The notes beneath the pieces are model-generated. The model was not told the origin of the DNA and did not search any database. It saw only the letters and a list, made by a program, of their open reading frames with translations. From the NCBI RefSeq assembly GCF_000012905.2, contig NC_007493.2, positions 630,001 to 662,000 of the forward strand: a stretch of 32,000 nt of DNA, written 5' to 3'. This document shows, piece after piece, positions 5,412 through 30,229 of this stretch (position 1 is the first letter of the stretch; each line of letters opens with the position of its first letter). A program made the translations under genes and the position numbers. The DNA is from Cereibacter sphaeroides 2.4.1. Lineage in GTDB: Bacteria > Pseudomonadota > Alphaproteobacteria > Rhodobacterales > Rhodobacteraceae.

Positions 5412-5612
5412 GTGATGCAGATCCCCCGAACGGACGGGGTGGTGAGGAGCGACCCTTGCCGGCTGACGGACGAGCGGATGGAGCGGCTGACGCCGTTCTT
5501 TCCGAAAAGCCATGGCAAGCCGCGCGTTGATGACCGGCGGGCGTTGAGCGGGATGATTTTCATCAATCGCGATGGCTTGCGGTGGTGCGATGCCCCGCGG
5601 GAGCAGGCGTAG
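5412..5612 (+). pseudogene. IS5-family (IS427/IS5-like) transposase, N-terminal about 60 aa only
   Basis: RLTDERMERLTPFFPKSHGKPRVDDRRALSGMIFINRDGLRWCDAP matches the conserved N-terminal block of IS5-group transposases (LtDeqWerieP.lPk..GrPRvDDRrvLsGI.f..R.G..WrDaP). The frame stops right after, where EYGP... is expected. Confidence 0.65.
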
Positions 5613-5770
5613 GGCGCGACGCCGTTCAGCCGGCAGGTTCCGATGACTGAGGCGAAGCGCGCTTGGGACTGGCTGCGCTCGTCGTGGCCGGCGAGGAGCG
5701 CGTTCCTTCGCCCGAGGGTCGGCGGCCGGATGCGGTTCTCGACGGGTTCGAGGCCGTCTCGATCCGGCCG
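5606..5770 (-). pseudogene. IS66-family transposase (TnpC), C-terminal fragment
   Basis: The minus-strand translation DGLEPVENRIRPPTLGRRNALLAGHDERSQSQARFASVIGTCRLNGVAPYA matches the conserved IS66 block (..NN.aE..iRp.alGRKNwLFaGs..G......sLi.TaKLNgvdP.aYL). It has no start codon and is cut off at about 5606, where the antisense of the IS5 fragment begins. Confidence 0.55.
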
Positions 5771-5876
5771 CCGTCGGGGACAGCCGCATCGCCCCGTCCT
5801 GCACCCGAGCGCTCCGCGCGTTCATCCCTTCGATCCGTCTACGGGACGGATCGATCCCTTCGGGACCGGTCTTCAC

Positions 5877-6140
5877 CTAAACAAAGCTGCCGCTCTTCAG
5901 CCGCTTGTCGATCAGCACGAGCCCGCTGCCGTTCCGGACCTGGTCGCCCTTCGCGCCCTCATCCAGCGCCTGAGCTACACCCTGACGGTCAGTTCGGGGT
6001 CGAGCCTCTACAACCGCGATGTCGTCCTCACCGTGCCGGACGAGGATCCGGCGCTGCGGGGTGCCGGCCTGCCGTCGCCGGAGGCGGATCTTCCCGGCAA
6101 CGATCTTGGGGATGAACCCGGCCGCGGCGTTGCCCGGGGT
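5877..6140 (-). pseudogene. IS66 Orf2 (TnpB)-like fragment, decayed
   Basis: The minus-strand frame has no start codon: ...RRILVRHGEDDIA...GAKGDQVRNGSGLVLIDKRLKSGSFV* (stop 5877-5879). The tail resembles the IS66 TnpB core (..rGD..K.L.wDG.GlcL..KRLe.G.F.W) with deletions. It is on the same strand as, and just upstream of, the TnpC fragment. Confidence 0.4.
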
Positions 6141-6584
6141 TTGTCACGCCGGCTCTCGGCGCCGCAATGCCTCCACGCGCTGCGGCTCGCCGCCACTTTC
6201 GGCACCCGCGAGACCTTTCGGCAATGTCTCGCGCCGGGCGCGGTGACCGTGATCGGAGACCTGCGTCCCGACGAGGTCAGGCCGCCCTCGGACCTGCTGC
6301 GGCTCGGGCTGCTGCCGCCGGGCTACTGGATCCACTCCCGGGCGGACCAGAAGATCGAGGGTGAGTCCCTCCTGCTGCTGTCGCCGGTGGCCGACGGCGA
6401 CTTGATCGCTCCGGCCAAGCGCCGCAGCTTCCACGAGCGTCTCCCCCAAGCCTTCGACGCGCTCCTTCTGGTGCTGATCCTCTGTCCCGAGGAAGCCAAG
6501 CCTCCGGCAGACCTCTTGCGCTCCTTGCCGGCGCTGCTGATGCTGGCGCGGGTCGATCGCTCGATGATGCTGCACTGGGGCTGA
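6141..6584 (+). pseudogene. GC-rich hypothetical gene fragment, probably 5'-truncated by the IS debris
   Basis: The 3' part of ORF 5643..6584 (…AVTVIGDLRPDEVRPPSDLLRLGLLPPGYWIHSRADQKIEGESLLLLSPVADGD…LMLARVDRSMMLHWG) has near-saturated GC3, unlike the other five frames. I recognise no family, and the true start is unknown. Confidence 0.3.
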
Positions 6585-7279
6585 CCCATGCGATCCCCGA
6601 CGACGCCGATATGGCCGACGTTCATTCCGCGCTTCCAGCCTTGAGCCGAACAAGCTGATCCTGAGGGCCAGACCGGATCCGAAGCCTAAGGAATTACACG
6701 CCGACGGCCGTTTGTGCCAGCCGAGCGAGCGGATCACAGAACCCAGATCTTAGTCAATGGCGTGGCGCTTAGAGCAGACATCACGCGATTTTGTCTTGAT
6801 GCAGGGAGCGCAGAAAAATCCCCGAAACGTAAATCTTTATGCCTCTCTGGCAGCCACTTGCGTGGCACTTGGCGGGCCCAGAAGGTGTGCGGAAAGCAAG
6901 CGCAGCCAGAGGCTTGCTCAGTAAACACCGCCTCAGCGCGCTCCTTGCAGATCAATCACTTAGACATCTACGTGTAAACGTGCTGTGCGAAGATGATGGC
7001 GATGAATTATGCCGTTCAGTGGACCCATCTGGGACGCAGGACAGGTCGATGAAGCGCCCTCCGTCACGTCGCGATGCAGACCGAAGTTCAGGCCGAAGCG
7101 GCCCATCCGGGCCGCCGGCAGCGAACGTCTGGAACCAGCCCATTGCCGTCGGTCGTGCGGAGCGCTGCAGGCCGGTGGCCCCACCGTACAGGGCGGTGAA
7201 CCGCCCGTGAGGCTGCGGCATCGCGTCCGCGGCAATCGGCGAAAGCGGCCATTCGCGACTCGCCCGTGGCGCAACGCAG

Positions 7280-7293
7280 TGCGCAGGAAGCGG
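7280..7293 (-). repeat. repeat core copy A1 (inverted): CCGCTTCCTGCGCA
   Basis: Plus strand TGCGCAGGAAGCGG is the reverse complement of 14 nt of the core found at 14781-14794. Confidence 0.8.
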
Positions 7294-7325
7294 ACCCGAG
7301 CGCCTGCAGCCTGATCGGCAGCCGA

Positions 7326-7340
7326 GCGCAGGAAGCGGCC
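7326..7340 (-). repeat. repeat core copy A2 (inverted): GGCCGCTTCCTGCGC
   Basis: Plus strand GCGCAGGAAGCGGCC is the exact reverse complement of 14779-14793. It lies 45 nt from copy A1. Confidence 0.85.
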
Positions 7341-7560
7341 GGAGGTGGCCCAAGCCAAATACACTAAAGCAATACGGCTGCCTGCTGTTGCGCATCCACC
7401 AATTCATGCACCTGCTATGTGGGGCGAACGAACAGTCGACATACTACTGAAATCTGTTTACTTACGTCTTCAAGTGAAGCGCATTGCTGGGTACTAGCCA
7501 CGTGGTCGATCACGTCAAGCCAATAAAGCGCCTCTCGAAGAAGCTGAAAAGGGGTTCTCC

Positions 7561-9057
7561 ATGACGATTCCGACATTCAAAGATATTGATTTTGGAGAAA
7601 TAGATGCGAATGCGGAGCACCTCATGGCGCTGCTTAGAAGAGGCATTCCAATGTTTGAGCGGGCCTTCGTGCCTCCGCCAATGCAGAACCTTGATCGCTT
7701 TAAGCAACATGAGAAATTTTTGATCTATGGCCAGAAGGGAACTGGGAAGTCGGCAGTTCTCAGACATCTTGAGGCGCATTCAGTTAAGGCGGGATATCGA
7801 ACGGACTATATAATTTTCAAGGACAATGTCTCAGAAGAATCGGATTTGTTTGAAAGCGGAATTCTAAGCCCCGTATCCGAGCAGGATGTCTTAAAAATAC
7901 GACATTATCTTCACATTATGAAAAGAATGCTGCTCCTTAAGTTTCTCTACTTAATGATTGCGGAGAAGGGTGAGAGAGTTGCTGGAGAGTTGGATGCGGC
8001 GGCTCCCTTCTTGGGCAAGGTCATGGAGTGGTTCAAGAATTCAACGCTTTCGGACGTATCATCTTACGCAATCCGAACAGCATTTGATTTAGCTTCATCG
8101 GTAAAGAAAGACGAACAAGAAGGATTGAGGTCGATTGACTTTGGCAAGCTCTTAAAGGGTCAAAACGATACGCTGCTGAAATCTCTCGTCGCTCAGGCTA
8201 AGAAGGAGAGCTTCAAGGCTGTAATTTTCGTTGATGAAATCCACTTCTCATTTAAGGATAACGAATCTTATAGACAAGATGCGATGTTGGTTCGCGATTG
8301 CATCGCTGCGGCTTTGAACCTTAACGAGACATTCATTCGAAACGGCGTAACCTGCTTTGTCCAAGTGGCCGTTCGGTCGGAATTTCTTGAGCACCCCGTT
8401 ATTGCACAGGCGGAAATACAAAATCAAATTCATTCATTTGGCGAGCCTATAGATTGGTCGAGTGAGAAATATGATGAAAAATCTAGGCTTTGGGGTTTTG
8501 TTTTGGCGAGAGTTAAACTCGAAGATAGCCGAGTCACCTCAAGGCAATTCTTCGATAATTATGTAGGGAATGGAAGAGCAACGTCGCTTCTTGAACATAC
8601 CTGGTCTAAGCCTCGAGATTTGATTCGCTTCTTCAACGTTGCAAAACGCCGTTATCCAAAAAAAACTAATCTCGACAAGGCTGATTTTGATAGCGTCATC
8701 AAGGAATATAGTATCGAGGCATGGCGGGAACTTAGGACAGCACTCTCATCCTTCCTAAACGAGTCCGCTCTGCTCAGGCTGGAAGAGTTCTTAGGAGAGA
8801 ATGCGCACAGAAATTATAACCATACCCCCTTCAAGAAAGAAGATCTTGTGGATTTCCTGATGGGCGTAAAGTCGGAGTTTGATAATAATTTGGATGTGGG
8901 ACTGGTTTTGGGCTTGCTATATATATTGGGCGTCCTGCAGATGCGTAGTGAGATGGCTGGCGGGACGATATTCAACGCCTACCATCGCGCAAATCTTCAG
9001 CCGAAATGGGATTGGGAGATTTATATGCACCCCGCTGTTGCGAAAAGATTTTCATAG
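7561..9057 (+). CDS. orphan P-loop NTPase of unassigned family (candidate defence/Abi protein)
   Basis: 498-aa ORF, ATG 7561 with AAAAGGGG upstream, about 40% GC. Walker A is GQKGTGKS (7729-7752) and Walker B is VIFVDEIH (8221-8244). No effector domain is recognisable. Confidence 0.85.
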   Translation: MTIPTFKDIDFGEIDANAEHLMALLRRGIPMFERAFVPPPMQNLDRFKQHEKFLIYGQKGTGKSAVLRHLEAHSVKAGYRTDYIIFKDNVSEESDLFESGILSPVSEQDVLKIRHYLHIMKRMLLLKFLYLMIAEKGERVAGELDAAAPFLGKVMEWFKNSTLSDVSSYAIRTAFDLASSVKKDEQEGLRSIDFGKLLKGQNDTLLKSLVAQAKKESFKAVIFVDEIHFSFKDNESYRQDAMLVRDCIAAALNLNETFIRNGVTCFVQVAVRSEFLEHPVIAQAEIQNQIHSFGEPIDWSSEKYDEKSRLWGFVLARVKLEDSRVTSRQFFDNYVGNGRATSLLEHTWSKPRDLIRFFNVAKRRYPKKTNLDKADFDSVIKEYSIEAWRELRTALSSFLNESALLRLEEFLGENAHRNYNHTPFKKEDLVDFLMGVKSEFDNNLDVGLVLGLLYILGVLQMRSEMAGGTIFNAYHRANLQPKWDWEIYMHPAVAKRFS

Positions 9058-9092
9058 TGGGATTGGGGGCGGCACCACGCCGTTCCTGCCAT

Positions 9093-9286
9093 GAACGGTA
9101 GCTATGGGCTGTGAGCGCCTATCGCTGCGGCTTGCCCGAGTGACCGCTTCGGCGGCAGACACCGGGAGTTCCGACCGTCGGCTGTGGGCCGCAATGGGCG
9201 GGGCTGAACAGGTCGTGCCAAGCGTTCCTTCCTGTGCGCTACGGCCGCTTCCCTGCGCATCGCCGCCATCCGAGCGTGGCGCGGCG
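9093..9286 (+). repeat. cassette 3' element, copy B (after the NTPase gene)
   Basis: GAACGGTAGCTATGGGCT (9093-9110) matches GAATGGTAGCTCAGGGCC (14720-14737) at 14 of 18 positions. The core GGCCGCTTCCCTGCGCAT (9243-9260) differs from 14779-14795 by a 1-nt indel. The next about 24 nt are roughly two-thirds identical. Copy B carries about 90 extra nt between the blocks. Confidence 0.65.
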
Positions 9287-9533
9287 AAAGACCGCAGGCA
9301 GCCCTTTACCGCCACTCATGCGAAGCGGAGCATGACGCCCAGCGTCTTCGCTGAGGGCGGAAAGCCGTCAGTCGTCAATGCAGCGTGGCAACTGTAGCAG
9401 CTGTGGGGAAGCAGTCTTTCGCGCTGTGCAGAACGAGAACCCGACAAATCGACGGGTGTGCCGCTACCTATTGACTAGGCTTCGAAATTACTGAACTTCA
9501 GGTGCGTTGGAGTAGCATGTCGGGAGAAGAACG

Positions 9534-11048
9534 ATGGCAGATCCGAGTGCGCGGTGGCACGGAGACGACTATCAGTCACGCCATTTCTGGATACATGCCG
9601 CTTCCCTCCTGGACGAGCATTCCACTCATGTAGCTGAAGTCACATTCGAAGCACACGGTCCCAAATCATTTGACGATGTCGTTGTCCGGTACGATCCCGG
9701 CCGGCCCGATCGGAGGAGCCCGGAACCAGTTCATCAGGATCACTATCAGATCAAGTGGCACACTGATCACTCGGGGCACTTCGGCTACGAGCAGCTAATG
9801 GATCCAAGGTTCATTTCGGGAACTGCCGTATCGTTGCTCGAAAGGTTGCGCAATGCGAAGCTGACTGCCCCCCCGAACTCAGCCTTCCATTTTGTCACCA
9901 CCCATGACTTGACGCAGGGCGACCCGCTGCGGGAACTTGTCTCCAATGTGGACCATTCAATCCGCCTGAAGATCCTTAAAGAGGGTAAAACCGCTAGAAG
10001 CACGATGGGAAAGGTCCGGAAAGCTTGGTGCAAACATCTCAAGGTGACGGACGAAGAGCTTTTCGACATTCTGACCGGCTTCCACATAGAGACCCGTGCC
10101 CGAAGCCTAGAGTCTTTGCGAACCGAAGTGGCCATGCGTTTCCGGACGGTTGGCCTGAACGGCCACGAGACCGATACGATTTTCCCCTATGATGGGTTCG
10201 CAAGGGAGCTCGTCGTCAAGCAAATCCGAAGTCTGGACCGCGCCAAGTTTCGGTCCCTTTGTGAGCGAGAGGGCTGGTATCTTCAGAAGCGCGCGCCCTC
10301 CAAACGCGGGGTTGCAATCCAGACATACGCGCCCCGTGCAACGCCTGCCGATCTCCTACTTGCCGCGCCGGAGAATACCTTGGTCCTGGCTGATCACTTC
10401 AACGACCGGAAATTGAAGGAGGGGCATAGCTGGGATCAGATCAGAGATGAAGTTAGAAGCTTCTTGGACGCCAAGCTACGTGAGACCGTCGATTTCCGGC
10501 TTTTCCTCGATGCACCGTCTTCGTTGGCATTCCTGTCCGGCTCCTGTCTAGGTCTGAAATCTGGAGCATCCGTCGAGCTAGTCCAGATGGGTTACGGCAA
10601 CCCGAACCGGATCTGGGATACCGCTGACGGGCGAGGTGGTCCGCTTCCCGACATAGAGACGCTTAGAGTTGGAGACGGGCAAGACATCGGCCTCGTTATA
10701 AGCCTTGCCCGCAACGCACTTTACAAAGTGCGAGAGTATCTCCAGAGAGAATTGCCGGAGGTGGGAACCGTAATACACGTCACGCCGCCCGGGGGCGCTG
10801 CGCAGGGGTCTGTGTCGGGCGGAGAGCATGCTCTTGCCATTGCGGGTCAGGCAGGTCAAGTGGTGTCGGATCTTTCTCGGCCAGGCGGTCGTACGCATAT
10901 ATTTATTGCTGCCCCGAATGCCGTAGCGTTCTTTCTTGGTCAGCAGGCTGACTCCATGGGCGTCTGCATCCCATACGAGTTCGACTTCAAAAAGGAAGTC
11001 GACGCCTCCTATCGTCCCTCCTTCGAGATTGGACTTCAGCGGCCTTGA
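9534..11048 (+). CDS. cap4: CBASS effector, Cap4-like: DUF4297 PD-(D/E)xK nuclease fused to a SAVED sensor domain
   Basis: The N-terminus WHGDDYQSRHFWIHAASLL...VTFEA...FDDVVVRY...YQIKWH fits the DUF4297 pattern. The C-terminal half has two CARF-like pseudo-repeats ending RLFLDAPSSLAFLSGSCLG and HIFIAAPNAVAFFLGQQ, as in SAVED. The gene lies directly upstream of a CD-NTase. Confidence 0.75.
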   Translation: MADPSARWHGDDYQSRHFWIHAASLLDEHSTHVAEVTFEAHGPKSFDDVVVRYDPGRPDRRSPEPVHQDHYQIKWHTDHSGHFGYEQLMDPRFISGTAVSLLERLRNAKLTAPPNSAFHFVTTHDLTQGDPLRELVSNVDHSIRLKILKEGKTARSTMGKVRKAWCKHLKVTDEELFDILTGFHIETRARSLESLRTEVAMRFRTVGLNGHETDTIFPYDGFARELVVKQIRSLDRAKFRSLCEREGWYLQKRAPSKRGVAIQTYAPRATPADLLLAAPENTLVLADHFNDRKLKEGHSWDQIRDEVRSFLDAKLRETVDFRLFLDAPSSLAFLSGSCLGLKSGASVELVQMGYGNPNRIWDTADGRGGPLPDIETLRVGDGQDIGLVISLARNALYKVREYLQRELPEVGTVIHVTPPGGAAQGSVSGGEHALAIAGQAGQVVSDLSRPGGRTHIFIAAPNAVAFFLGQQADSMGVCIPYEFDFKKEVDASYRPSFEIGLQRP

Positions 11049-11166
11049 AAGGTCGTCAGGCGACGCCCTATGCTTAGGCGATTCGCCCCCGTGCACGCTG
11101 GATAAGGTGCTTGAGGGACGGATCTGACGTATCCTATTGTTACCATTTTGGCCGGAGGAGCTCCTC

Positions 11167-12378
11167 GTGAAGCTCGAGTCGCAGTTTAGGGATTTTCTTC
11201 GTGAGATCCGCCCCACCGAAACTCAGCAAGAGGACTGGAAGGCTGGGGCGAAAACTCTGAGAACGAGGTTGGCTCAGGATCCCGACCTGAAAGACATCTT
11301 GGAAGAAACCTTCCTTCAAGGCAGCATTCGCAGATCGACCGCAATCCGTCCCAGCGGCAACAAGCGACCGGATGTGGACATTGTGGTGGTGACGAATATC
11401 GACTACACCCAGACCACACCTCAGCAGGCCATGGATCTGTTCAAGCCGTTTCTGGACAAGCACTACGGCGGTAAGTGGCGTCCGCAGGGCCGATCCTTTG
11501 GAATTGAGCTTTCATATGTCGATATGGACTTGGTGATCACCGCACTGCCCAGAACCGTGCAACTGCTCGATGAGCGTCAGGTTGCACGTTTTGCAGACAA
11601 GGACGCTCTCACCAGTATCTACAAGTCCGATGCGGCAACCTCCCTCTCGACACTGGAGGAGGACACCAGCTGGCGCCTCAACACGCGCTGGCAAGACAGC
11701 CGATCCTTCAGTGATCTTGACGGGCTGAACCGTGAGCTCGGCTCGGCTGTCAATGAAAGCCTCAAGGACGAGGTTACCGAAGAGTGGAAGTCGGAACCCT
11801 TGTGGCTCCCAGACCGAGACACCAAAAAATGGGGGCGCACACATCCCCTTCTTCAGATTTCGTGGACGGCCGAGAAAAACCGAAGGACGAACAAGACTTA
11901 TCTCCACATTGTTCGGGCCATCAAATGGTGGCGTCTGGAGATTGCGGAAAAGCTGCCCAAGTACCCCAAGGGCTACCCTCTCGAGCACATGGTTGGGCAT
12001 CTCCTCGAGGACGGGGCGGACCTGTCCACCGCTCAGGGCATCGTCCAAGTATTCGAGAGCTTCCGCGACAAGTGGCTTCTTGTAGCAAGGAACCATCAGG
12101 TCCCTGTGCTTTGTGACCACGGCGTGGCCGAGCACAATGTACTTGCCCGCCTGAGCGCCGAAGACTTCGTGGGGTTTGTCGAGGTAGTATCTAAGTTTGC
12201 AGCCCTAGCGCGCCAAGCATTCAACTCGACTGATCCTGTCGAATCCGGCAAGCTTTGGCAACAAATCTTCGGGTCTAAATTTCCACTACCCGGCCCCAAC
12301 GGCGGAGATCGAACTGGCAGCCACTTTGTCAAGCCGACCGTTGCCGCTGTGCCCCCGACCAGCGACCGCTTCGCTTGA
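11167..12378 (+). CDS. CD-NTase (SMODS-family cGAS/DncV-like nucleotidyltransferase)
   Basis: Pol-beta triad: GS 11320-11325, DVD 11371-11379, DMD 11521-11529 (QGSIRRSTAIRPSGNKRPDVDIVVV ... VDMDLVI). I prefer GTG 11167, which has GGAGGAG (11154-11160) 6 nt upstream, over the track's TTG 11137. Confidence 0.8.
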   Translation: MKLESQFRDFLREIRPTETQQEDWKAGAKTLRTRLAQDPDLKDILEETFLQGSIRRSTAIRPSGNKRPDVDIVVVTNIDYTQTTPQQAMDLFKPFLDKHYGGKWRPQGRSFGIELSYVDMDLVITALPRTVQLLDERQVARFADKDALTSIYKSDAATSLSTLEEDTSWRLNTRWQDSRSFSDLDGLNRELGSAVNESLKDEVTEEWKSEPLWLPDRDTKKWGRTHPLLQISWTAEKNRRTNKTYLHIVRAIKWWRLEIAEKLPKYPKGYPLEHMVGHLLEDGADLSTAQGIVQVFESFRDKWLLVARNHQVPVLCDHGVAEHNVLARLSAEDFVGFVEVVSKFAALARQAFNSTDPVESGKLWQQIFGSKFPLPGPNGGDRTGSHFVKPTVAAVPPTSDRFA

Positions 12379-14180
12379 AGTCGCCAAACGATGAGGAGAT
12401 CCCGGATGTTCTGCATCCGGTTACCTCCTTGCTGCGTATTGGCGTTGGTCCCGTGACTGCGCTGGAAGGTTGGAAAGAGTGGCGAAGGGGGTTTTTCTCT
12501 CTTCCGCTTGTTGCTCGTGTCACAATTTCGCCCGGCCAGAGCTTTCCTGCCGAAAGCAGATGGCACCTTGTCGTGTCCTCTGGGTCCTACCCGGCAGATA
12601 TCTTCATCTTGCCCGACAAGGTGGCAGGTCCGAACTTGACCTTTCCCCACCAGGCCGCAGTCTATTCTCGCGATGGCAAAGAACCGTGGTTGAACGGTGA
12701 GCCCTGCCTGACAGATCCGACGGCCGCGTTCGGTGATCGCCACGGATCCCGACCGGAACCCATCGCCCTTGCGGACCGGCTGATCTGGAAGGTCGAACGC
12801 TTTTCTCGCTGGTGCGAGCTAGCCGCCGCGGGTCGTCTCCATAATCCCGGTGATCACTTCGAACTCCCGCCCCTTAGCGGACATACCAATCCGATGACCA
12901 TCGGGTTCCATGAGACAGAGGGGGATCTCGTCAGATGGACCCAAGGCGCCGCTAGAGCAGGTATTGTGCACTTGGTCAGTGTATCTTCCTCTAGTAAAGT
13001 CCTTGCAGCGCAAAGTTGGCGGACAACTGAGGATGATCTCCTCCATATGCCAGATTGGGGTCTCCTGATAAAGAATCAGTCGCCGGGACAGATACCAGCG
13101 ATATGGTTCTTGCTCGAAGAGATCCCCATCATCGGTGCTTGGCAGTTGCCCCGGACATATCGGGAGCTCAGCGAGAGACTTGCAGGAGAAACGATTGACC
13201 TAGCCAAATCTTTAGCGGTGTTGGGCCAAAGCATGAGGAAAAGGAACATTAGCCGACCGGCCGTAATCATGTTCGGCTTTCCTATTCCACGGTTCTTTGG
13301 AGATGCCCCTTCGCGCATTCACTGGCTCGCAATATGTGACGTCCGCTTGACCCGAAAAAACAGCGCAAGGAATGGTTTCCGCTCCTCCGAGGCGAACCGA
13401 CAACGGTTTGATCGTGACCTCGCACGGTCAGCCAAAGCCCTTTCTTGGGCTACATGTGAAAACTGGGCACCTGATCAGATAAGGACGCGCCTGCGTAGCG
13501 CGCCGGGCTCGCAGCCGAAGATGCTGCTGATCGGTGCTGGTGCGCTTGGCAGCCAAGTTGCCGAGACGCTCATGCGTACGGGTGTGCGTGACATTGATGT
13601 GCGTGACCGAGATGAACTCGCGGCGGGAAACCTCTGCCGACACGCTCTCGATCTCACCATGATCGCTGTGAACAAGGCCGCAGCCCTAGCCGCGCAACTC
13701 AATCGCCTTCAACCTGACGGAAGAGCCCGAGGCGATGATCGGGCCTTCCCAACTGTCGGACCGGACGGGCCTGAGAATGCCGATGACTATGATGTCATCC
13801 TCGATTGCACCGGCGAGAACAAGCTGTTGCGCAGCCTTTCGATGATACCCTGGAAGTCCGAAAAACTGTTCATCTCCCTCTCTGTAAACTGGGGCGCGCG
13901 GGGTCTCATGTTCTGGTCATCTCGGGGCGCATCATTTCCGGCAGTTGATGCAACGGAACGTCTCGAGGCGCTTGCAAGAAAGTTCAGGCCCGAGGGAATC
14001 GATGAGCGGTTTGAGGGGATCGGCTGCTGGCATCCGGTCTTCCCAGCTGATGCAGCAGACATCCGAATCTGGGCCGGAATGGGGGCAAGATATGTGCTGG
14101 ACCAGATCGAGGGCGGCCCAGAGGGGTGCGGCATCTATTTCTTCAACGACGATCGGACCATCGGACTTGAGCATGGATAG
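12375..14180 (+). CDS. cap2: Cap2: E2-like / E1 (ThiF-like) fusion, CD-NTase-conjugating enzyme
   Basis: E2-like motif FPHQAAVY..DGKEPWLNGEPCL (Cys111, 12705-12707). ThiF Rossmann LLIGAGALGSQVAETLMRTGV...AAGNLCRH starts at 13521. The TTG start overlaps the CD-NTase stop (cTTGAag), and the exact start is uncertain. Confidence 0.8.
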   Translation: MKSPNDEEIPDVLHPVTSLLRIGVGPVTALEGWKEWRRGFFSLPLVARVTISPGQSFPAESRWHLVVSSGSYPADIFILPDKVAGPNLTFPHQAAVYSRDGKEPWLNGEPCLTDPTAAFGDRHGSRPEPIALADRLIWKVERFSRWCELAAAGRLHNPGDHFELPPLSGHTNPMTIGFHETEGDLVRWTQGAARAGIVHLVSVSSSSKVLAAQSWRTTEDDLLHMPDWGLLIKNQSPGQIPAIWFLLEEIPIIGAWQLPRTYRELSERLAGETIDLAKSLAVLGQSMRKRNISRPAVIMFGFPIPRFFGDAPSRIHWLAICDVRLTRKNSARNGFRSSEANRQRFDRDLARSAKALSWATCENWAPDQIRTRLRSAPGSQPKMLLIGAGALGSQVAETLMRTGVRDIDVRDRDELAAGNLCRHALDLTMIAVNKAAALAAQLNRLQPDGRARGDDRAFPTVGPDGPENADDYDVILDCTGENKLLRSLSMIPWKSEKLFISLSVNWGARGLMFWSSRGASFPAVDATERLEALARKFRPEGIDERFEGIGCWHPVFPADAADIRIWAGMGARYVLDQIEGGPEGCGIYFFNDDRTIGLEHG

Positions 14181-14691
14181 GTCTGACCGGCATTTCACAT
14201 CCGATTCTGGGGCGACGGTTACTTTAACTGCCAGAGCATTCGCGAAAATGGCCGAGTTCGCTGCCAAACGATCTCAACGCGAGACCGGAGGTATACTCAT
14301 TGGTCATTATTCAGAGGATCTGACGATCGCCAGAATAGAAGCCGCGAGTGACGAGCCGCCAGACTCGCGTGCAGGTCGGACTTGGTTCGTGCGTGGCCAA
14401 GTAGGGCTCGCCGAGATATTGCAACGGGCTTGGCGTGAGGGGCGCTACTATTTGGGTGAATGGCATTCTCACCCCGGAGCCAGCCCTGCACCGAGCGGCC
14501 CGGACTTGTCCGCCATTGCAAAGATGGCGCGTCACCCGACCTTCATTTGCCACCGTCCAATTCTGGTTATCATCGGTGGCAATTTCCATCAACAACCGCT
14601 CTTGTCCGCCACTTTGGCTGCCAAAACAGGCGTTACAACTCAGCTGCGTGCGGAACTGTACTCCAATGAGCATGAACGACTGCTTCGGTGA
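14173..14691 (+). CDS. cap3: Cap3: JAB/JAMM metallopeptidase (deconjugase)
   Basis: ATG 14173 overlaps the Cap2 stop (ATGGATAG). The JAMM motif is EWHSHPGASPAPSGPD (14458-14505), with an upstream Glu in RETGGILIG. The track's start at 13945 would overlap cap2 by 236 nt. Confidence 0.88.
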   Translation: MDRSDRHFTSDSGATVTLTARAFAKMAEFAAKRSQRETGGILIGHYSEDLTIARIEAASDEPPDSRAGRTWFVRGQVGLAEILQRAWREGRYYLGEWHSHPGASPAPSGPDLSAIAKMARHPTFICHRPILVIIGGNFHQQPLLSATLAAKTGVTTQLRAELYSNEHERLLR

Positions 14692-14719
14692 AGTTTAAGG
14701 ACACAGACGGAGGAGTATC

Positions 14720-14830
14720 GAATGGTAGCTCAGGGCCGGGCGCGCAATCTTGCTGCGCTCGGCCAAGCAGCAGCGGGGGGCCGCTTCCTGCGCATAGCGG
14801 TCATAGGAGCGCGGCCGGTTGCCGCGCGCC
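14720..14830 (+). repeat. cassette 3' element, copy C (after cap3): an imperfect palindrome containing the repeat core
   Basis: The core GGCCGCTTCCTGCGCAT is at 14779-14795. The outer arms 14739-14760 and 14807-14830 pair (GGCGCGC/GCGCGCC, AA/TT, GCGCTC/GAGCGC). An inner hairpin pairs 14767-14776 with 14781-14791. The element lies in the convergent gap between cap3 and the phage membrane-protein gene. Confidence 0.65.
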
Positions 14831-14845: not shown

Positions 14846-15343
14846 TCAGAGTTCGGCGGCTTGGGCCAGCCTGGACCGGACCAGCGCATCTAGCGTGTCC
14901 GTCGGCGGGCCGAGCTCCTTCAGCGCATCCGGCACCGATTTCTGAACATAGCTTGAGACAAACTCGGACGCCGCATCGGGGGCAAGCTTCCGGGCCACCG
15001 CAAGGCGTGCGGCCGTCATGACAGCCGAATGCAAGGCCTCGCGATGGCGAGCTTCGATCTGGATCCCGGTCCAGTGCTGGAACCGAACGGTTGCGAAGCC
15101 GATCAACGCGGTCAGTGCCACGCCCGCGAGATCAAGGAGGCTCGGCGCCAGGGCGGTCAGGAGGTCGCTGCCGGTCGATGCGGCGGCCGGTAGGGCGAGC
15201 ATGGCGACGATGGGGACCGAGATCGCGATGCGCGCCAGAGCGGCCAGCAGCGGCAAGCCTACCAGCTGGATGAAGGCGGACGCACAGAGAGCGAGCATGA
15301 GCACGAGGAGCGCCGGGGGCGCGAGGATGAAGATCGTGGACAT
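14846..15343 (-). CDS. membrane protein at the end of the lysis module (holin/antiholin/spanin-like role possible)
   Basis: ATG 15343 is preceded by AAGGAGAG. The product has 3-4 N-terminal TM helices and a soluble C-terminus. It starts 13 nt downstream of the endolysin gene. Confidence 0.55.
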   Translation of the reverse strand: MSTIFILAPPALLVLMLALCASAFIQLVGLPLLAALARIAISVPIVAMLALPAAASTGSDLLTALAPSLLDLAGVALTALIGFATVRFQHWTGIQIEARHREALHSAVMTAARLAVARKLAPDAASEFVSSYVQKSVPDALKELGPPTDTLDALVRSRLAQAAEL

Positions 15344-15355
15344 GGGGTCTCTCCT

Positions 15356-16165
15356 TCACAGGCGGGCGAACTGGAAGTGCATCCAGTCGCGGTTGCAGGC
15401 GCGGCCGAGGCTCGTGGCGCCGGCGGTTTCGACGATGGTCCAGAAGGGCTCGTAGGCGGGCGCGGCGAAGCTCGCGCGGTCGCGGCCCCAGCGGAGCGGG
15501 TTGCGCTCGGGGTCGAGGTCGACGGCGATGCCCCAAGCGTGCATCGAGAGGGCCGAGCCGCCGCGCATGGGCCGGTGGTTGAAGCAGCCCCCGAAGAAGT
15601 TCAGCCGCAGGCTCTCGAACTGGTCGGCGCCGTAGTGCGCCACCGCCTCGCGGAAGATCCGCGTCATGGGGGCCGCCACCAGCTTGTGGCAGCGGAAGCT
15701 CGTGATGCTCGTGTTGAGATCCCAGGCGAGCCGGAACGGGATCGGCAGCTCGACGATCCCGGCGGTGCAGTCGGGGCCGCCGGCGACGCCATAGAAGGTC
15801 GCGACAGACTCCTGCCGCGGATAGGCGCCCTGGGCATCGGCCACGGCATGGCCCGGCAGCGGCACCCGGTCGACGGCGGCCCGCACCGGCCCGGAGGCCC
15901 ACGCGGTCAGCGCCTCGCGGGTGTTCGGCCCGAGGAGCCCGTCGATCCGGCCCGGCGCATGGCCGAGCCGCGCCAGCACCGCCTGGCCGGCCGCGATCCG
16001 CTGCCGGCGGGAGGGCCAGGTGCGCCAGGGCACCGCCTCTCGCTCCAGCGCGGCCAGCGCGGCCGCCTGGGTCAGCGGCCCCGCATCGCCGTCGATGGCG
16101 CCGCGGTAGAGCCCCGCGGCCGCGAGCAGCCGCTGGATGTCGGATGTCGTCACGTCTTTCTCCAT
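15356..16165 (-). CDS. endolysin: peptidoglycan-binding domain plus M15-type (D-Ala-D-Ala carboxypeptidase-like) peptidase
   Basis: The N-terminal LLAAAGLYRGAIDGDAGPLTQAAL looks like PG_binding_1. The C-terminal SMHAWGIAVDLD...DWMHFQF gives the H..D..H zinc ligands of the M15 family. I prefer ATG 16165 to the track's TTG 16171. Confidence 0.75.
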   Translation of the reverse strand: MEKDVTTSDIQRLLAAAGLYRGAIDGDAGPLTQAAALAALEREAVPWRTWPSRRQRIAAGQAVLARLGHAPGRIDGLLGPNTREALTAWASGPVRAAVDRVPLPGHAVADAQGAYPRQESVATFYGVAGGPDCTAGIVELPIPFRLAWDLNTSITSFRCHKLVAAPMTRIFREAVAHYGADQFESLRLNFFGGCFNHRPMRGGSALSMHAWGIAVDLDPERNPLRWGRDRASFAAPAYEPFWTIVETAGATSLGRACNRDWMHFQFARL

Positions 16166-16168
16166 ATG

Positions 16169-16193
16169 CAAAAGCCCCGCACAAAGGCGGGGC
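16169..16193 (-). terminator. intrinsic terminator downstream of the methyltransferase gene
   Basis: The minus strand reads GCCCCGC-CTTTGT-GCGGGGC-TTTTG, a 7-bp GC stem (16174-16180 / 16187-16193) followed by a T-run. It starts 27 nt after the stop at 16220-16222. Confidence 0.6.
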
Positions 16194-16219
16194 GTGGTGG
16201 GTCGGACTGGTGGGATTTT

Positions 16220-17026
16220 TCAGAGGAGGGTCGCGATCCGCTCGCGGTTCGAGACGAGGAGCTCCTGCGCCTCGGTGCCGCCCGCCGCAGAGACCGAGTA
16301 ATTCAGCCGCACCGGCTCGAGGTGGAACCGGCCGAAGAGCGCCCGGATCTCCGACGTGTCATTGATCGACAGGAGGAAGGCGCCCTTCAGGCTGCCGAGG
16401 ATCTCGGCGATCCGCGCGAACTGCGCCCGGTCGAAGATCCCGCGGCCGTAGTCGTTCTCGCCGCCGAAGTAGGGTGGGTCGAGATAGAACAGCGTCTCGG
16501 CCGTGTCGTAACGCGGGATCAGGTCGGCCCAGTCGAGGCTCTCGAAGACCACGCCGTCGAGCCGCTCGTGGGCGGCATCGAGGACCGGCTCGAGACGCGC
16601 CAACGAGAAGCGGGGCCCGTGCCCGGCCGAGACGCCGAAGACCCCGTCGAGCTTGCCGCCGAAGCTGAGCCGCTGGAGGTAGAGGAACCGCGCGGCGCGC
16701 TCGAGGTCGGTGAGCGTGGCCGGGTCAGTCACGCGCAGCCGGTCGAACTCGCGCCGGCTGCAGATCTGGAAGCGCATGATCTCGAGGAGCTGCGGGTAAT
16801 GCCGCTGCAGGATCCGGAAGAGGTTGATGATCTCGCCGTTGCGGTCGTTCATGACCTCGAGGCGCGGCCGGAAGCGGCGGCGGAGGAAGATCCCGCCCAT
16901 GCCGACGAAGGGCTCGACATAGGCGCGGTGGGGGATGGCCTCGATCCGCTCGAGGATGAGCGGGTGGAGACGTTTCTTGCCGCCGAGCCACGGAGCAACC
17001 GGGGCGGCGGGAGGTACTTGTTTCAT
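16220..17026 (-). CDS. Dam-like N6-adenine DNA methyltransferase (D12 class), orphan
   Basis: 268 aa from ATG 17026. It has EPFVGMGG (FxGxG SAM motif) and DPPY (catalytic motif IV). The rest of ORF 16220..17872 is an antisense artefact over the EamA gene. Confidence 0.85.
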   Translation of the reverse strand: MKQVPPAAPVAPWLGGKKRLHPLILERIEAIPHRAYVEPFVGMGGIFLRRRFRPRLEVMNDRNGEIINLFRILQRHYPQLLEIMRFQICSRREFDRLRVTDPATLTDLERAARFLYLQRLSFGGKLDGVFGVSAGHGPRFSLARLEPVLDAAHERLDGVVFESLDWADLIPRYDTAETLFYLDPPYFGGENDYGRGIFDRAQFARIAEILGSLKGAFLLSINDTSEIRALFGRFHLEPVRLNYSVSAAGGTEAQELLVSNRERIATLL

Positions 17027-17329
17027 AAGGTGATTCGGCCTCACAAGGCGCCTGCCCTCGCGAGGGGTGGCAGGCAGTCTGAAAGGCGACGGACAGGCTG
17101 GCGCGGTCGCTGGTGACACATTGGCCGCGTGGTTCGGGCTGTTTGCGCAGCCCGGCCCCTGCCAGAGGGGCGTTACGGGCGCCCCGAGGAAGGGCGCGCC
17201 GGATCGGATGATCCATGATCGGGAATGGGCATCAGGGCGGCCGAGGTGCGCTCCCGGCGCGAGCTTCAGGGTGAGGTTGTGCCCCGCGTTGTGTTCCCCT
17301 AAAGTTCCCTCTCGTGGCAGGGAGGTTTC

Positions 17330-18235
17330 ATGTCGGCATCTGCAAGAAGCTCCTCCGAGGACCGCATCCCCCTTGCCGTCACGTCGATCATTCTGACGGT
17401 TCTTGCGCTGTCGCTCGGGGATGCGCTGGTCAAGATGACCAGCGGCAGCTTCGTCATCTGGCAGATCTTCGTGGTTCGGTCGCTGATCCTGCTCCCGATC
17501 CTGATGGGTGTGGCCCTGTCGCTCGGCTGCCTGCGCGTGCCGCAGGCAGGGATATGGATCGCGGTGCGGAGCCTCATGCTGATCGCGATGTGGATCTGCT
17601 ACTACTTGGCGCTGCCGAACCTGTCCCTGTCGGCCGCAGCGGCGGCCTACTACACGCTGCCCATCTTCATCACCCTGTTCTCCGCGGTGTTCGTTGGCGA
17701 CAGCATCACGGCGAAGGGCTGGGCCGCCGTTGTGCTGGGGTTCGTCGGCGTCCTGTTCATCCTTCGCCCGAGCGCGGGAGACTTCAATCTCTATGCGCTC
17801 CTGCCGTTGCTGGCGGCGATGCTCTACGCCGGGGCCATGATCTTGACGCGGACGCGTTGCCAGTCCGAGCATCCGGTCATCCTGTCGCTGGCGCTGAACC
17901 TCGGCTTCATCATCGCCGGCGGCATTGCCGCCTGCCTGATCTGGCAGCTGCCGGCAGACATGAGGCAGGGTTTCCTGCTGTCGGAATGGACGGCCATGGG
18001 GTGGAGCGAATGGGTGTCGATGGGGCTTCTGGCGGCCTCCATCCTGATCGGCAGCATCGGGGCGGCCATCGCGTACCAGAATGGCCCGCCAGCCATGATC
18101 GGCGCCTTCGACTTCGCATATGTCGGCTTTGCCGTCCTCTGGGGCATCGTGTTCTTTAACGAAACTCCCGATCTGATCGCGTCCATCGGCATGATCATGA
18201 TCGTGGGTGGCGGGATCCTGTCCCTCCGCCAGTGA
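17330..18235 (+). CDS. DMT-superfamily (EamA-like) transporter
   Basis: ATG 17330 with GGAGG at 17321-17325. The 301-aa product has about 10 TM helices with a duplicated EamA-like pattern. It is on the opposite strand to all surrounding phage genes. Confidence 0.75.
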   Translation: MSASARSSSEDRIPLAVTSIILTVLALSLGDALVKMTSGSFVIWQIFVVRSLILLPILMGVALSLGCLRVPQAGIWIAVRSLMLIAMWICYYLALPNLSLSAAAAAYYTLPIFITLFSAVFVGDSITAKGWAAVVLGFVGVLFILRPSAGDFNLYALLPLLAAMLYAGAMILTRTRCQSEHPVILSLALNLGFIIAGGIAACLIWQLPADMRQGFLLSEWTAMGWSEWVSMGLLAASILIGSIGAAIAYQNGPPAMIGAFDFAYVGFAVLWGIVFFNETPDLIASIGMIMIVGGGILSLRQ

Positions 18236-18305
18236 GCGGCAGCCTCGCTCGCCTCCTCCACTATGCGTGTGGGTGCAGATGGCCGCCGGTGGCGCTGCTC
18301 CCGTT

Positions 18306-18623
18306 CTACCCCGCGCTCCTTCCCCGCCAGAGCCGCTCCAGCATCGCCGTGGTGCCGCGCGGCCCGAGATAGGCCAGCATCGCGACGAGGCCCATCGCCG
18401 CCCGGCCGTCGAGGTCGAGGTACGAGCTCAGGGCCTCGCCGATGAAGGCCATGGCGACGAGGGCGGGGATCTCCCAGAGGAGCTCGCGGCCGAAGAAGGC
18501 GCGGCGGCGGGCGCGCACCTCGCCGGTGTGATACATGAGCCGCCCCATGGCGGCGGCGATCAGCGTGGCGATGGCCCCGCCCCAGAGCGCCGTGATGGTG
18601 TCGATCAGTCCCTTTTCCGGCAT
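18306..18623 (-). CDS. lambda S-like (class I, 3-TMD) holin
   Basis: MPEKGLIDTITALWGGAIATLIAAAMGRL... parallels, from memory, lambda S ([34 protein letters not shown]...). The 105-aa product has 3 hydrophobic segments and a basic C-terminus. AGGAG lies upstream of ATG 18623. Confidence 0.6.
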   Translation of the reverse strand: MPEKGLIDTITALWGGAIATLIAAAMGRLMYHTGEVRARRRAFFGRELLWEIPALVAMAFIGEALSSYLDLDGRAAMGLVAMLAYLGPRGTTAMLERLWRGRSAG

Positions 18624-18759
18624 CGCGCCGCTCCTGTTGTGTGCGCTCCGCGCGTCTGTCGGCCCGGCCGGAGGCGGCCGGGTCTTGTCATGATGATCGG
18701 GAAGGCGGGGGCGCCTCAGTCTGCCGGTGGCTCGGGGAAGCCCGACTGATCGATCAGGC

Positions 18760-19098
18760 TCAGAGCCTCACCTCTGCGGCTTCGACGAACAGCCGATCCG
18801 TCTCCTCCGGCGAGAGGCCGAGGAGGAAGGCCAGCGTGTCCGTCGTCTCCGATCCGCGGACGAGCATCGTCGCGCCGCGCAGCGCGGCCCGCATCGCCCA
18901 GGGGTAGGAGGCGTCCTCCGCGATGGCCATGGCCTCGGCCCACTTCTCCTCGCCGATCACGATCATGGCCTGCAGGACAGAGACCTGGGCCGGCCCCCGC
19001 GCGCGAGCCTCGGCCTGCGCCCTGATGTCCGCGGCCTTCACGAGCCTGCTGTAATCGATGGTCGCGGTCGTCATCATTGCTGCTTTCTTCCTGGTCAT
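18760..19098 (-). CDS. phage hypothetical protein
   Basis: 112-aa ORF with high GC3, packed tightly (3-nt gap) behind the preceding phage gene. I recognise no family. Confidence 0.5.
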   Translation of the reverse strand: MTRKKAAMMTTATIDYSRLVKAADIRAQAEARARGPAQVSVLQAMIVIGEEKWAEAMAIAEDASYPWAMRAALRGATMLVRGSETTDTLAFLLGLSPEETDRLFVEAAEVRL

Positions 19099-19101
19099 GG
19101 A

Positions 19102-19419
19102 TCAGCCTTCCGCGGACGGCGGGAGGTAGGGCGGGATCGGGATATCCTGATCCTCGACCTCGACAGTGCCGGGGTTCGGCAGCGGATTGTCCCCGTAATA
19201 GCCGTGGGGGAAGACCACCTCGAACTCGAGGACACCGTCGATCCGGGTGACGTTGCTCGTGACCCAGGTGTTGTCCATGGCGTCCCAGGGCAGCACGTCG
19301 CCCTCCCCGACGCCGCTGAAGTCGTAGACCATGTCATTGCAGGTCAGGGTGTCCCCCTCGGCCCGGAAGACGGTCAGCTCATACATCCGCCGAAGCGGGA
19401 CCATGCGAATGCGCATCAT
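19102..19419 (-). CDS. phage hypothetical protein (tail-fibre accessory by position)
   Basis: 105-aa ORF. GGAGG lies upstream of ATG 19419, immediately after the tail-fibre stop. Confidence 0.5.
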   Translation of the reverse strand: MMRIRMVPLRRMYELTVFRAEGDTLTCNDMVYDFSGVGEGDVLPWDAMDNTWVTSNVTRIDGVLEFEVVFPHGYYGDNPLPNPGTVEVEDQDIPIPPYLPPSAEG

Positions 19420-19425
19420 GGCGGA

Positions 19426-20910: not shown

Positions 20911-20925
20911 GGGATGTCCCTTGCG

Positions 20926-21816
20926 TCAGGCGAGGCTCTCGACCTCGGCGCGGCCGTCGCAGATGGCATGGCCGAGGGTCAGGTCGTAATCGCGGAGGAT
21001 GCCGGCGACGGTGGTGCCCCAGAGGTCGACCCCTTCGCCCGCGTAGAAGACGGCGAGCCGGCTCGAGACCCGCTCCATGATCGACTGGACGCGCGCGGCG
21101 CCCTCGAGCGGGACCTGGAAGGCCAGCGAGACGGTGCGGGTGACGGGGCGCGGCACGATATAGAGCCCGCCCCATTCGTCGCGCTGCTTCACGGAATAGT
21201 CGACGAGGCCGAGGCCGGTGCCGGCGACCGTGGTGCCGACCGGCGTGTCGCGGCCCATGACGATCTCGCCCACGCGGGTGACGGCGCCCCCCGTGACCGT
21301 GATGTCGAGCGTGGCGCCTGCCGGCAGCGGCGCGGCCACGATCACGTTCGGGGTGAAGGCGAACTCGGTGAAGACATATTCCCAGAAGGTGCCCACCGGG
21401 TCGCGCGCCACGAGACCCTCCGTCCGGTCGTGGATCGTCACGCCTGCGGGCGTGGTGACCTTCACCCGGACGGAGGCCGCATCGAGGTTGAAGAAGGCGA
21501 TGCGGTTCAGCGTGCGCGGCAGCCGGATGGAATAGGCGATGGTGGGGCCGCCGACCGTCTGGCCGCCGATCCGCTCGTCGAAGGCGCGCCAGCGGTTGGT
21601 GGCCCCGATCCGGAGCCACCAGCTGCCGAGCGTATCGCCCGCCGGATCGTGGCCCGTGTTGCCGTCGGCCACGCTCTCCCAGACGCCGTGATGGGCCACG
21701 ACGCGGGCGCCGCGGGCGTAGGTCACGCCCGGGCCCCAGGCAGGATGGTCGTCCTCGGGGATGTTGCTCGCGAGGAGCGCCGCCGGCGTGACCGGCGTCG
21801 GCAGGATGATCCGCAT
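20926..21816 (-). CDS. distal tail / baseplate protein with a CBM5/12-like N-terminal motif
   Basis: Its ATG overlaps the tape-measure stop (ATGA). The N-terminus PAWGPGVTYARGARVVAHHGVWESVADGNTGHDPAGD..WW fits the W..G..Y..G..V...G..Y......N.G..P carbohydrate-binding-like pattern common in tail proteins. Confidence 0.55.
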   Translation of the reverse strand: MRIILPTPVTPAALLASNIPEDDHPAWGPGVTYARGARVVAHHGVWESVADGNTGHDPAGDTLGSWWLRIGATNRWRAFDERIGGQTVGGPTIAYSIRLPRTLNRIAFFNLDAASVRVKVTTPAGVTIHDRTEGLVARDPVGTFWEYVFTEFAFTPNVIVAAPLPAGATLDITVTGGAVTRVGEIVMGRDTPVGTTVAGTGLGLVDYSVKQRDEWGGLYIVPRPVTRTVSLAFQVPLEGAARVQSIMERVSSRLAVFYAGEGVDLWGTTVAGILRDYDLTLGHAICDGRAEVESLA

Positions 21817-26822: not shown

Positions 26823-26960
26823 GGGAAGCCTCCTCATGGAGAAGGCCGCCCGGAGGCGGCCTGGTCAGTTGCGTTTGTGCGGAGCTGGTCCGGGGACGGC
26901 GGCCGGTTCATGTTGCAAGGGGCGGTCTTGGTCCGGCGGCGGGCCGCGCCCTCACGGGGA

Positions 26961-28107: not shown

Positions 28108-28116
28108 GTGGCCCTC

Positions 28117-28497: not shown

Positions 28498-28500
28498 GGG

Positions 28501-30159: not shown

Positions 30160-30229
30160 GGTCTCTCTCCAAAGGGGATCGGAACTGAGAGGCGGGCCCG
30201 AAGGCCCGCCCCGGTCACCTGCGCCGCGA

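Follow-up and report, generated by a model that had tools for sequence, protein, structure and literature searches.

What is a solitary, AT-rich ATPase gene doing beside a complete defence operon at the end of a prophage? This question is raised by a 32,000-nt stretch of Cereibacter sphaeroides 2.4.1 DNA (contig NC_007493.2, positions 630,001 to 662,000; hereafter the window, with coordinates counted from its first letter), in which a 498-amino-acid (aa) protein is encoded upstream of a type II cyclic-oligonucleotide-based anti-phage signalling system (CBASS). An earlier note on this DNA had described it as an orphan P-loop NTPase, recently and independently acquired, and as a candidate single-gene defence factor. 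Profile and sequence matches identify it instead as a member of a named, functionally uncharacterised family, the Sll1717 family of P-loop ATPases. The explanation that we tentatively prefer is that of a stand-alone AAA+ ATPase of ORC/Cdc6-STAND type, carried as a mobile AT-rich single-gene module and acting in conflict or defence.

A member of the Sll1717 family of P-loop ATPases

The open reading frame (ORF) lies on the plus strand and runs from the ATG at 7561 to the TAG at 9055-9057, exactly as the earlier note had placed it. The ribosome-binding sequence claimed upstream is also there, as AAAAGGGG at 7547-7554, ending 6 nt 5' of the ATG, within an AT-rich leader (7400-7560) that presumably contains the promoter as well. 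In comparisons of the window gene with homologues of 63-72% identity, nonsynonymous divergence was low (pN 0.19-0.24) while synonymous divergence was saturated (pS 0.86-0.96), a difference that shows a genuine gene maintained by purifying selection. Shorter starts, giving proteins of 468 and 477 aa, have also been annotated; since G12, D15, A16 and E19, near the N-terminus, are conserved in the homologue alignments, the start at 7561 is favoured over them. A hairpin 3' of the stop codon has a stability like that of shuffled sequence (z = -0.29).

The family assignment comes from an NCBIfam profile search, in which NF047389 ("P-loop ATPase, Sll1717 family") scored 168.3 bits against a curated cutoff of 75 (E 3.1e-49), the match taking in aa 11-495 and profile positions 1-452 out of 454. 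An exact-sequence look-up found the protein to be identical to RefSeq WP_160384101.1 of C. sphaeroides, where the Sll1717-family name is already given, and in strain 2.4.1 it is present as ABA78195 / Q3J4T9. A second full-length match is to PHROG 13260, whose function is unknown (E 8e-25). The protein is therefore not an orphan, and the earlier statement that it could be placed in no named defence ATPase family stands only in part: no defence profile matches convincingly, but the match to NF047389 is full-length. An exhaustive HMMER search recovered 436 family representatives at 50% identity, 233 of them with E ≤ 1e-10; nearly every one is 475-550 aa long, which implies a stable architecture. 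The family occurs in Alphaproteobacteria, Firmicutes, Bacteroidota, Actinomycetota, Spirochaetes and cyanobacteria. We distinguish here a close clade, of at least 30% identity, from distant members, of about 20-25% identity.

Other collections add little to this assignment. The Pfam matches are weak and mostly below cutoff (AAA_16, AAA_22, nSTAND6, nSTAND3, ORC-CDC6-like and ATPase_2), with AAA above its threshold (24.5 bits against 21.2), and a PDB sequence search with the family profile found no relative, just local P-loop matches to zeta toxin, ABC proteins and Cdc6. Two NCBIfam anti-phage models fall far below cutoff (DS41_1, 21.7 bits against 370; RdrA, 12.4 against 600). In agreement with the earlier note, Pfam and PADLOC scans of the 498-aa protein revealed no nuclease, TIR, SIR2, protease, transmembrane or other effector domain. 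The sole match among the defence profiles of PADLOC-DB v2.0 is an unconvincing one to mad8 (17.1 bits, E 7e-4). Membership of a MADS system, whose loci must contain mad6 and mad7 (10.1101/2023.03.30.534895), was considered and rejected, given this score and neighbours that are CBASS and prophage genes. By tblastn, no match to the ATPase was found in 50,697 phage genomes, and a single one, at 23%, among plasmids.

The gene and the parts of its product are laid out as follows:

7400-7560, plus strand: AT-rich leader upstream of the ATPase gene, 47-49% GC, holding the ribosome-binding sequence (100-nt GC profile; direct reading of the sequence)
7561-9057, plus strand: coding sequence of the 498-aa P-loop ATPase, Sll1717 family, NCBIfam NF047389 (ORF, NF047389 match, RefSeq identity, purifying selection)
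7591-7617, plus strand: N-terminal motif FGEIDANAE, aa 11-19, with G12 and D15 at least 90% conserved family-wide (alignments A1 and A2)
7729-7752, plus strand: Walker A motif or P-loop, GQKGTGKS, aa 57-64, with K59, G60, G62 and K63 invariant (sequence, alignments)
7816-8205, plus strand: predicted insert, helical throughout and some 130 aa long (aa 86-215), separating strand 2 from the Walker B strand (AlphaFold2 secondary structure)
8221-8244, plus strand: Walker B motif, VIFVDEIH, aa 221-228, with D225 invariant and E226 invariant in the close clade (sequence, alignments)
8350-8382, plus strand: predicted strand 4, ending at the invariant R272 (VAVRSE) and followed by E274 (model strand 264-272; alignment)
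8485-8652, plus strand: predicted helical lid, aa 309-364, with KPRDLIRF (aa 350-357) at 8608-8631 (model, alignment)
8656-9054, plus strand: C-terminal domain, aa 366-498, predicted as a helical bundle, helix-helix, beta-hairpin "wing" and last strand plus helix, with H490 nearly invariant (separate AlphaFold2 model; alignment A6)

Predicted fold and active site

A confident AlphaFold2 model built from 35 diverse homologues (pLDDT 84, pTM 0.84) places strand 54-57 ahead of the P-loop, followed by strand 80-85, the insert, the Walker B strand (219-225) and strands 264-272 and 294-296. The Walker A (GxxxxGK[ST]) and Walker B (hhhhDE) motifs thus lie on adjacent strands of a Rossmann-like core, as in AAA+ and other P-loop NTPases, and K59, G60, G62, K63, D225, R272, P351 and R352 are invariant in the 35 sequences; the predicted ATPase active site is intact and conserved. 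The earlier note had both Walker motifs and the KPRDLIRF stretch at their exact positions, and had been struck by some 160 aa between the former; the distance is 164 residues, and its length is due to the helical insert after strand 2. Three further positions can be interpreted within this framework. FGEIDANAE may be the counterpart of the GRExE-type motif found ahead of the P-loop in AAA_16, ORC and STAND proteins. R272, at the end of strand 4 in the model, would occupy the sensor-1 position, where an arginine is typical of STAND NTPases. Finally, P351-R352, which in model and alignment open helix 351-364 of the lid, are taken by us to be in a sensor-2-like position, by analogy with the GDAR motif of Orc1/Cdc6.

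When the full model was compared with the PDB by Foldseek, the top matches were archaeal Orc1 (2v1u, E 2.8e-5) and ORC2 (1w5s, E 1.7e-4), with probability 1.0, followed by weaker ones to yeast Orc1, DnaA, IstB and generic AAA+ proteins; a viral structure library returned generic AAA+, RFC and NLR-like matches only. Proteins of the ORC/Cdc6 clade are distinguished by a helical (ISM/HEH) insert after strand 2, by an arginine finger near strand 5 and by a helical lid with a sensor-2 arginine (PMC12839542). The window protein has its all-helical insert at this exact position, far larger than the canonical one and modelled with low confidence at aa 92-105, and it has the lid helices (aa 309-364) with the invariant sensor-2-like arginine R352. 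Near strand 5, where the window protein reads EIQNQIHSFGEPI (aa 278-300), no arginine is conserved; the two that are invariant, R272 and R352, lie elsewhere. The Pfam ORC-CDC6-like model, PF24389, falls short of its cutoff (19.1 bits against 27) and covers aa 36-77 only.

The last 140 or so residues, unassigned in the earlier note, are now confidently predicted as a helical plus beta-hairpin domain. Folded alone, the C-terminal 133 aa gave a pLDDT of 92.6, and the Foldseek list for this model consists almost entirely of winged-helix DNA binders: ArsR/SmtB, Fur/PerR, TubR, the ORC winged-helix domain and the KAT6A winged helix. In the model this domain looks like a winged helix rather than a hidden effector, with a best Foldseek E of about 1; its nearly invariant histidine, H490, is H125 of alignment A6. 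Four distant relatives carry additions at this end: P0186 has a C-terminal S1 nucleic-acid-binding domain of about 95 aa, matching the S1 domain of PNPase at E 1.7e-4, and three others have a C-terminal extension of about 200 aa. In two of these three, P0043 and P0045, the extension has, by eye alone, a PD-(D/E)xK-like motif (RRDIVAT ... VVIEVKN); a PDB sequence search gave no match to this extension. The fusions point towards nucleic acids as a substrate or ligand. A cold-shock reading of the tail of P0116 was discarded, the PDB sequence search giving no match here either.

The suggestion in the earlier note that the protein might be a STAND-like sensor keeps its structural half: the fold is of the ORC/Cdc6-STAND type, with no recognisable effector. 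The Pfam STAND models, by contrast, are all below cutoff (nSTAND6, 21.0 bits against 27.7; nSTAND3, 16.8 against 27.2; nSTAND1, 13.8 against 27.1). These results also bear on a different possibility, namely that the ATPase is a minimal NTP-switch transcription regulator, a STAND or AAA_16 module joined to a winged helix in the manner of a pared-down MalT or AfsR, with targets in the host or the prophage. The weak matches to AAA_16, ATPase_2 and nSTAND3/6, the invariant arginine at the sensor-1 position and the winged-helix-like C-terminus are what such a regulator would be expected to show; however, the STAND matches are sub-cutoff, the protein lacks a ligand-sensor repeat region, no conserved target gene or operon adjoins the family gene, and a patchy, AT-rich, horizontally scattered distribution is atypical for a dedicated regulator. 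We therefore regard this as improbable.

Surroundings, composition and relatives of the locus

Downstream of the ATPase gene, at 9534-14691, lies the type II CBASS operon, complete and in the order effector, CD-NTase, Cap2 (E2-E1) and Cap3 (JAB), the effector being a Cap4-like protein with SAVED and endonuclease domains; no relative of this effector was found in the IMG/VR viral contigs. Beyond it, on the minus strand at 14846-31531, is a prophage late region whose nearest end is at 14846 and which encodes a major head protein, a 1673-aa tape measure protein, a tail fibre, a holin, a DNA methyltransferase and an endolysin. The ATPase and CBASS genes are thus cargo at the prophage end, just past the lysis module, and this position supports the earlier remark that the gene is prophage-linked. 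The prophage has no close relative among the 50,697 phage genomes, in which its methylase and endolysin genes alone find matches, at about 70% identity. One prophage protein, of 550 aa, has a D12 adenine methyltransferase as its C-terminal half and an N-terminal part of about 280 aa without assignment.

On the other side, a fragment of an IS5-family transposase (DUF4096) lies at 5412-5612, 2 kb from the ATPase gene, together with a host short-chain dehydrogenase/reductase gene. It is followed by a GC-rich stretch of about 1.8 kb (5643-7400), whose longest ORF (5643-6584; GC at third codon positions, GC3, 0.81) has no Pfam match and which may be decayed sequence at a prophage or island boundary. 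Scans of the window for tRNA genes and Rfam families found none, and megablast of the window against plasmids gave no real match, from which it follows that the locus is chromosomal or derives from an unknown replicon.

Could the ATPase simply be an accessory or regulator of the adjacent CBASS, comparable to Cap6/TRIP13 or CapW? It lies 476 bp upstream of the effector gene and on the same strand, and one other contig in our survey (L002) has ATPase and CBASS in the same arrangement. That contig, however, is 100% identical to window positions 7629-14772, that is, it is the same genome and not an independent case; in the 59 other loci that were fetched, no relative of any of the four CBASS proteins was found. 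Moreover, the two modules differ by 12 points in GC and are separated by a GC-rich spacer, and no PADLOC CBASS model matches the ATPase. This role was consequently rejected as very improbable indeed.

Composition was central to the earlier interpretation. The ATPase ORF has 44.7% GC, rather than the roughly 40% first estimated by hand, against 56.9% in the CBASS operon, which is intermediate between ATPase and host, 63% in both spacers and 69% in the remaining window. The AT-rich block extends from about 7400, where the 100-nt profile falls from 0.64-0.74 to 0.45-0.47, to about 9060. Low GC had been read as the mark of a recent, independent acquisition, and this reading does not survive comparison across the family: in every one of the 47 loci (L001-L047) the family gene is AT-richer than the remainder of the locus, the difference reaching 31 points in L010 (0.385 against 0.692), and in 46 of the 47 its GC3 falls short of the median of its neighbours, in hosts that range from 33% to 70% GC. 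Because AT-richness is a property of the whole family, the low GC of the window copy is by itself no sign of recent arrival; it points to one of two causes, continual turnover by horizontal transfer or a selective advantage of AT-rich coding sequence, for example in relation to silencing or slow translation.

The spacers around the two modules share a GC-rich repeat, whose elements are:

7281-7293 and 7326-7338 (region 7276-7338), plus strand: repeat core GCGCAGGAAGCGG, two direct copies in the upstream spacer (repeat search)
9245-9258, minus strand: degenerate inverted core GCGCAGGGAAGCGG, with one extra G, in the ATPase-CBASS spacer (repeat search)
14781-14793, minus strand: exact inverted copy of the core, just 3' of the CBASS operon (repeat search)

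Three copies of GCGCAGGAAGCGG are present against 0.24 expected, a number attained in 1 of 100 shuffles. Two of them belong to a longer, 33-nt inverted repeat (79% identical) that brackets the ATPase and CBASS modules, at 7275-7307 and 14767-14799. With the core written as GCGCAGG(G)AAGCGG, the repeat is present in all three spacers (7275-7307, 7321-7338, 9245-9258 and 14767-14799). The earlier claim that the spacers on both sides of the ATPase gene carry the repeat core of the CBASS 3' flank is hence borne out upstream, by two copies, and weakened in the ATPase-CBASS spacer, where the copy is degenerate through a 1-nt insertion. This repeat may mark the boundary of a module, or it may be one of the host's intergenic repeats.

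Our survey took in about 45 non-redundant loci from metagenomes, viral contigs, 35 GTDB genomes and one plasmid. No family of neighbours is shared by more than three loci, which are closely related, and for this reason we conclude that the Sll1717-family gene is an autonomous single-gene module; together with the absence of CBASS from the 59 other loci, this upholds the earlier description of the gene as stand-alone. In the close clade, one homologue is adjoined by McrBC with a cytosine methylase, an FtsH-like protease and a RecD2-like helicase, and further conflict or mobile neighbours are an integrase, MazE-Doc with an insertion sequence (IS) element, and HicB-PIN. Other close-clade copies are solitary insertions directly 3' of uvrB, uvrA, acnB, thyX or a LysR gene; many copies are in fact solitary islets of about 1.6 kb amid housekeeping genes, with no other element genes. 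At L018 76-4234, upstream of a close homologue, an 872-aa protein with a C-terminal caspase (Peptidase_C14) is found with a DUF900 alpha/beta hydrolase, and the two together resemble a conflict-system module of their own.

Distant members are repeatedly embedded in restriction systems. Inside type I operons they occur in two orders, HsdR-HsdM-HsdS-[ATPase]-DUF3800 and HsdR-[ATPase]-HsdM-HsdS, the latter (L064/L065) with gaps of 18-33 nt that imply co-transcription with the hsd genes in L064; another lies within a DpnII cassette, between the endonuclease and a second methylase. The restriction-embedded loci, covering type I operons and the DpnII cassette, are L043 4722-12327, L064 3080-9982 and L041 8031-12258. 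Elsewhere, distant members are convergent with a TIR/SEFIR gene, in polysaccharide gene clusters, or immediately after gyrB (L021); in a methylase-rich element one adjoins the integrase, and a Paracoccus plasmid carries one along with recombinases and RelE. In the IMG/VR set, several copies lie within 100-600 nt of the end of a viral contig. Restriction-modification, McrBC, CBASS, TIR, toxin-antitoxin, integrase or IS neighbours were seen in roughly 18 of the approximately 45 loci, a qualitative count made without a background set; PADLOC aggregate scans of the neighbours were dominated by redundant methyltransferase and specificity-subunit models and were only partly informative. The check proposed in the earlier note, whether homologues lie beside defence genes, thus has a divided outcome: several do lie in defence or mobile contexts, but many close homologues sit amid housekeeping genes (such as acnB, uvrA, uvrB, thyX and gyrB).

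A separate observation concerns the position of the family gene directly 3' of a DNA-metabolism gene in four unrelated genomes:

L004 7804-11548: next to uvrB, with a 4-nt gap
L015 6810-11503: next to uvrA; here the family gene is split into two ORFs
L021 7248-11467: next to gyrB, with overlapping ends
L017 8961-11473: next to thyX

This adjacency could be due to chance, to a preferred insertion site of the islets, or to a link with DNA repair or replication.

The survey also bears on whether the ATPase could be a maintenance gene of mobile elements, either a replication initiator or a transposition and target-selection ATPase of the IstB/TniB/TnsC type. In favour of such a function, the predicted architecture is that of the Orc1/Cdc6 initiators, IstB and DnaA are among the weaker structural matches, some copies adjoin integrases, IS elements, a plasmid or the ends of prophages, and the window itself has the IS5 fragment 2 kb upstream. 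However, the family gene is not consistently accompanied by any transposase, integrase or replication gene, the IS21-helper model (IS21_help_AAA) stays far below its cutoff (14.7 bits against 200), and neither the many solitary islets amid housekeeping genes nor the several copies embedded in restriction operons fit well with it. We consider a maintenance function distinctly unlikely.

A possible defence role, and its relation to known systems

We therefore return to the stand-alone AAA+ ATPase of ORC/Cdc6-STAND type, carried as a mobile single-gene module with a role in conflict or defence. It is the best explanation we can offer for the locus, and we hold it tentatively, with doubt and belief not far from balance. 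For the window copy, a role in phage defence is plausible from its genomic surroundings. How such a protein would act is a matter on which we are less certain than on the defence role itself. The ATPase might work as a nucleotide-dependent switch that binds nucleic acid through its winged-helix-like C-terminal domain and its helical insert; foreign DNA, or an intermediate of replication or packaging, would then drive the ATP-bound protein to oligomerise, and the oligomer could block the replication or packaging of the invader, or arrest the cell, with no catalytic effector of its own.

Several results weigh against this reading: (i) a lone ATPase with no effector has no demonstrated route to immunity, and the lack of a strand-5 arginine finger makes a classical ring or filament assembly less supported. 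(ii) The TM-scores of the Orc1 and ORC2 matches are modest (0.33-0.44), with 12-14% sequence identity, and the C-terminal domain has no significant Foldseek match. (iii) A simple sigma-70 scan of the plus strand near the ATPase gene found no consensus promoter, and a terminator scan around it gave nothing convincing. (iv) No defence profile in PADLOC-DB matches convincingly, and a literature search with the family name and the model and protein accessions found no paper on the Sll1717 family. (v) The neighbour pattern, seen with no background rate for comparison, is typical of defence-related accessory genes, yet housekeeping genes are the only neighbours at about half of the close-clade loci, with nothing defence-like in view.

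These last points lead to the most serious of the other explanations, that the ATPase is a passenger of the accessory genome unrelated to conflict with phages or mobile elements, or else a selfish gene, whose defence neighbours merely reflect the variable regions in which it settles. The housekeeping neighbourhoods, the split copy next to uvrA and the missing background comparison all speak for it. Against it are the strong purifying selection with invariant catalytic residues, the TIR neighbour, and the repeated, independent embedding in restriction operons of both type I and type II, with differing gene orders, so that we judge it unlikely, yet a real contender.

The stand-alone defence ATPase can be extended into a more daring proposal, which we regard as doubtful: Sll1717 would be a widespread, effector-less, single-gene immunity module in which an Orc/Cdc6-like ATPase, equipped with a giant helical insert and a winged helix, undergoes ATP-driven assembly on invader DNA or on replication intermediates. 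Its restriction-embedded members would form a back-up layer, and its AT-richness would keep the gene silenced or poorly translated until needed. If this were true, an effector-less, single-protein mechanism of the Orc/Cdc6 type would join the immune strategies of bacteria, and a family spanning Alphaproteobacteria to cyanobacteria would have a function. If, on the contrary, the family is not protective, adjacency to CBASS and low GC would be shown to be weak evidence when taken alone. What is already known is the name of the family and the use of its fold class in defence. Since the window copy is present in C. sphaeroides, including the model strain 2.4.1, genetics can address the question directly.

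Finally, the window protein shares features with four groups of known systems and differs from each of them: (i) Archaeal Orc1/Cdc6 (2v1u, 1w5s). The layout predicted for the window protein, with an AAA+ base, a helical insert after strand 2, a lid and a C-terminal domain that looks like a winged helix, resembles theirs; however, their insert consists of one or two helices where the window protein has about 130 aa, and the window gene is a scattered bacterial accessory gene and not an origin-linked initiator. (ii) BREX and Ssp. ATPases of the ORC/Cdc6 clade recur in defence, as BrxC and BrxD in BREX and as SspC in the Ssp phosphorothioate system (PMC12839542, PMC10853773). Like the window protein, BrxD is an ATPase with no further domains, BrxC has a winged helix-turn-helix after a helical bundle, and some Sll1717 members sit within restriction-modification operons. 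In contrast, BrxC, BrxD and SspC belong to multi-gene systems with methyltransferases, PglZ or helicases, while Sll1717 proteins have no conserved partner, and no PADLOC BREX or Ssp model matches the window protein. (iii) STAND NTPases such as Avs and bNACHT. The predicted core of P-loop, helical domain and winged-helix-like domain is similar, as are the arginine at the predicted sensor-1 position and a near-invariant C-terminal histidine; the window protein, however, has neither a C-terminal repeat sensor nor an N-terminal effector, and among its fold matches in the PDB Orc1/Cdc6 rank ahead of any STAND protein. (iv) PrrC and RloC. These are second-line genes embedded in restriction operons, with an anticodon-nuclease effector, whereas no effector domain is seen in the window protein and the window copy adjoins no restriction system; what the family has in common with them is genomic position alone, distant Sll1717 members being found, as they are, within hsdR-hsdM-hsdS operons and a DpnII cassette.

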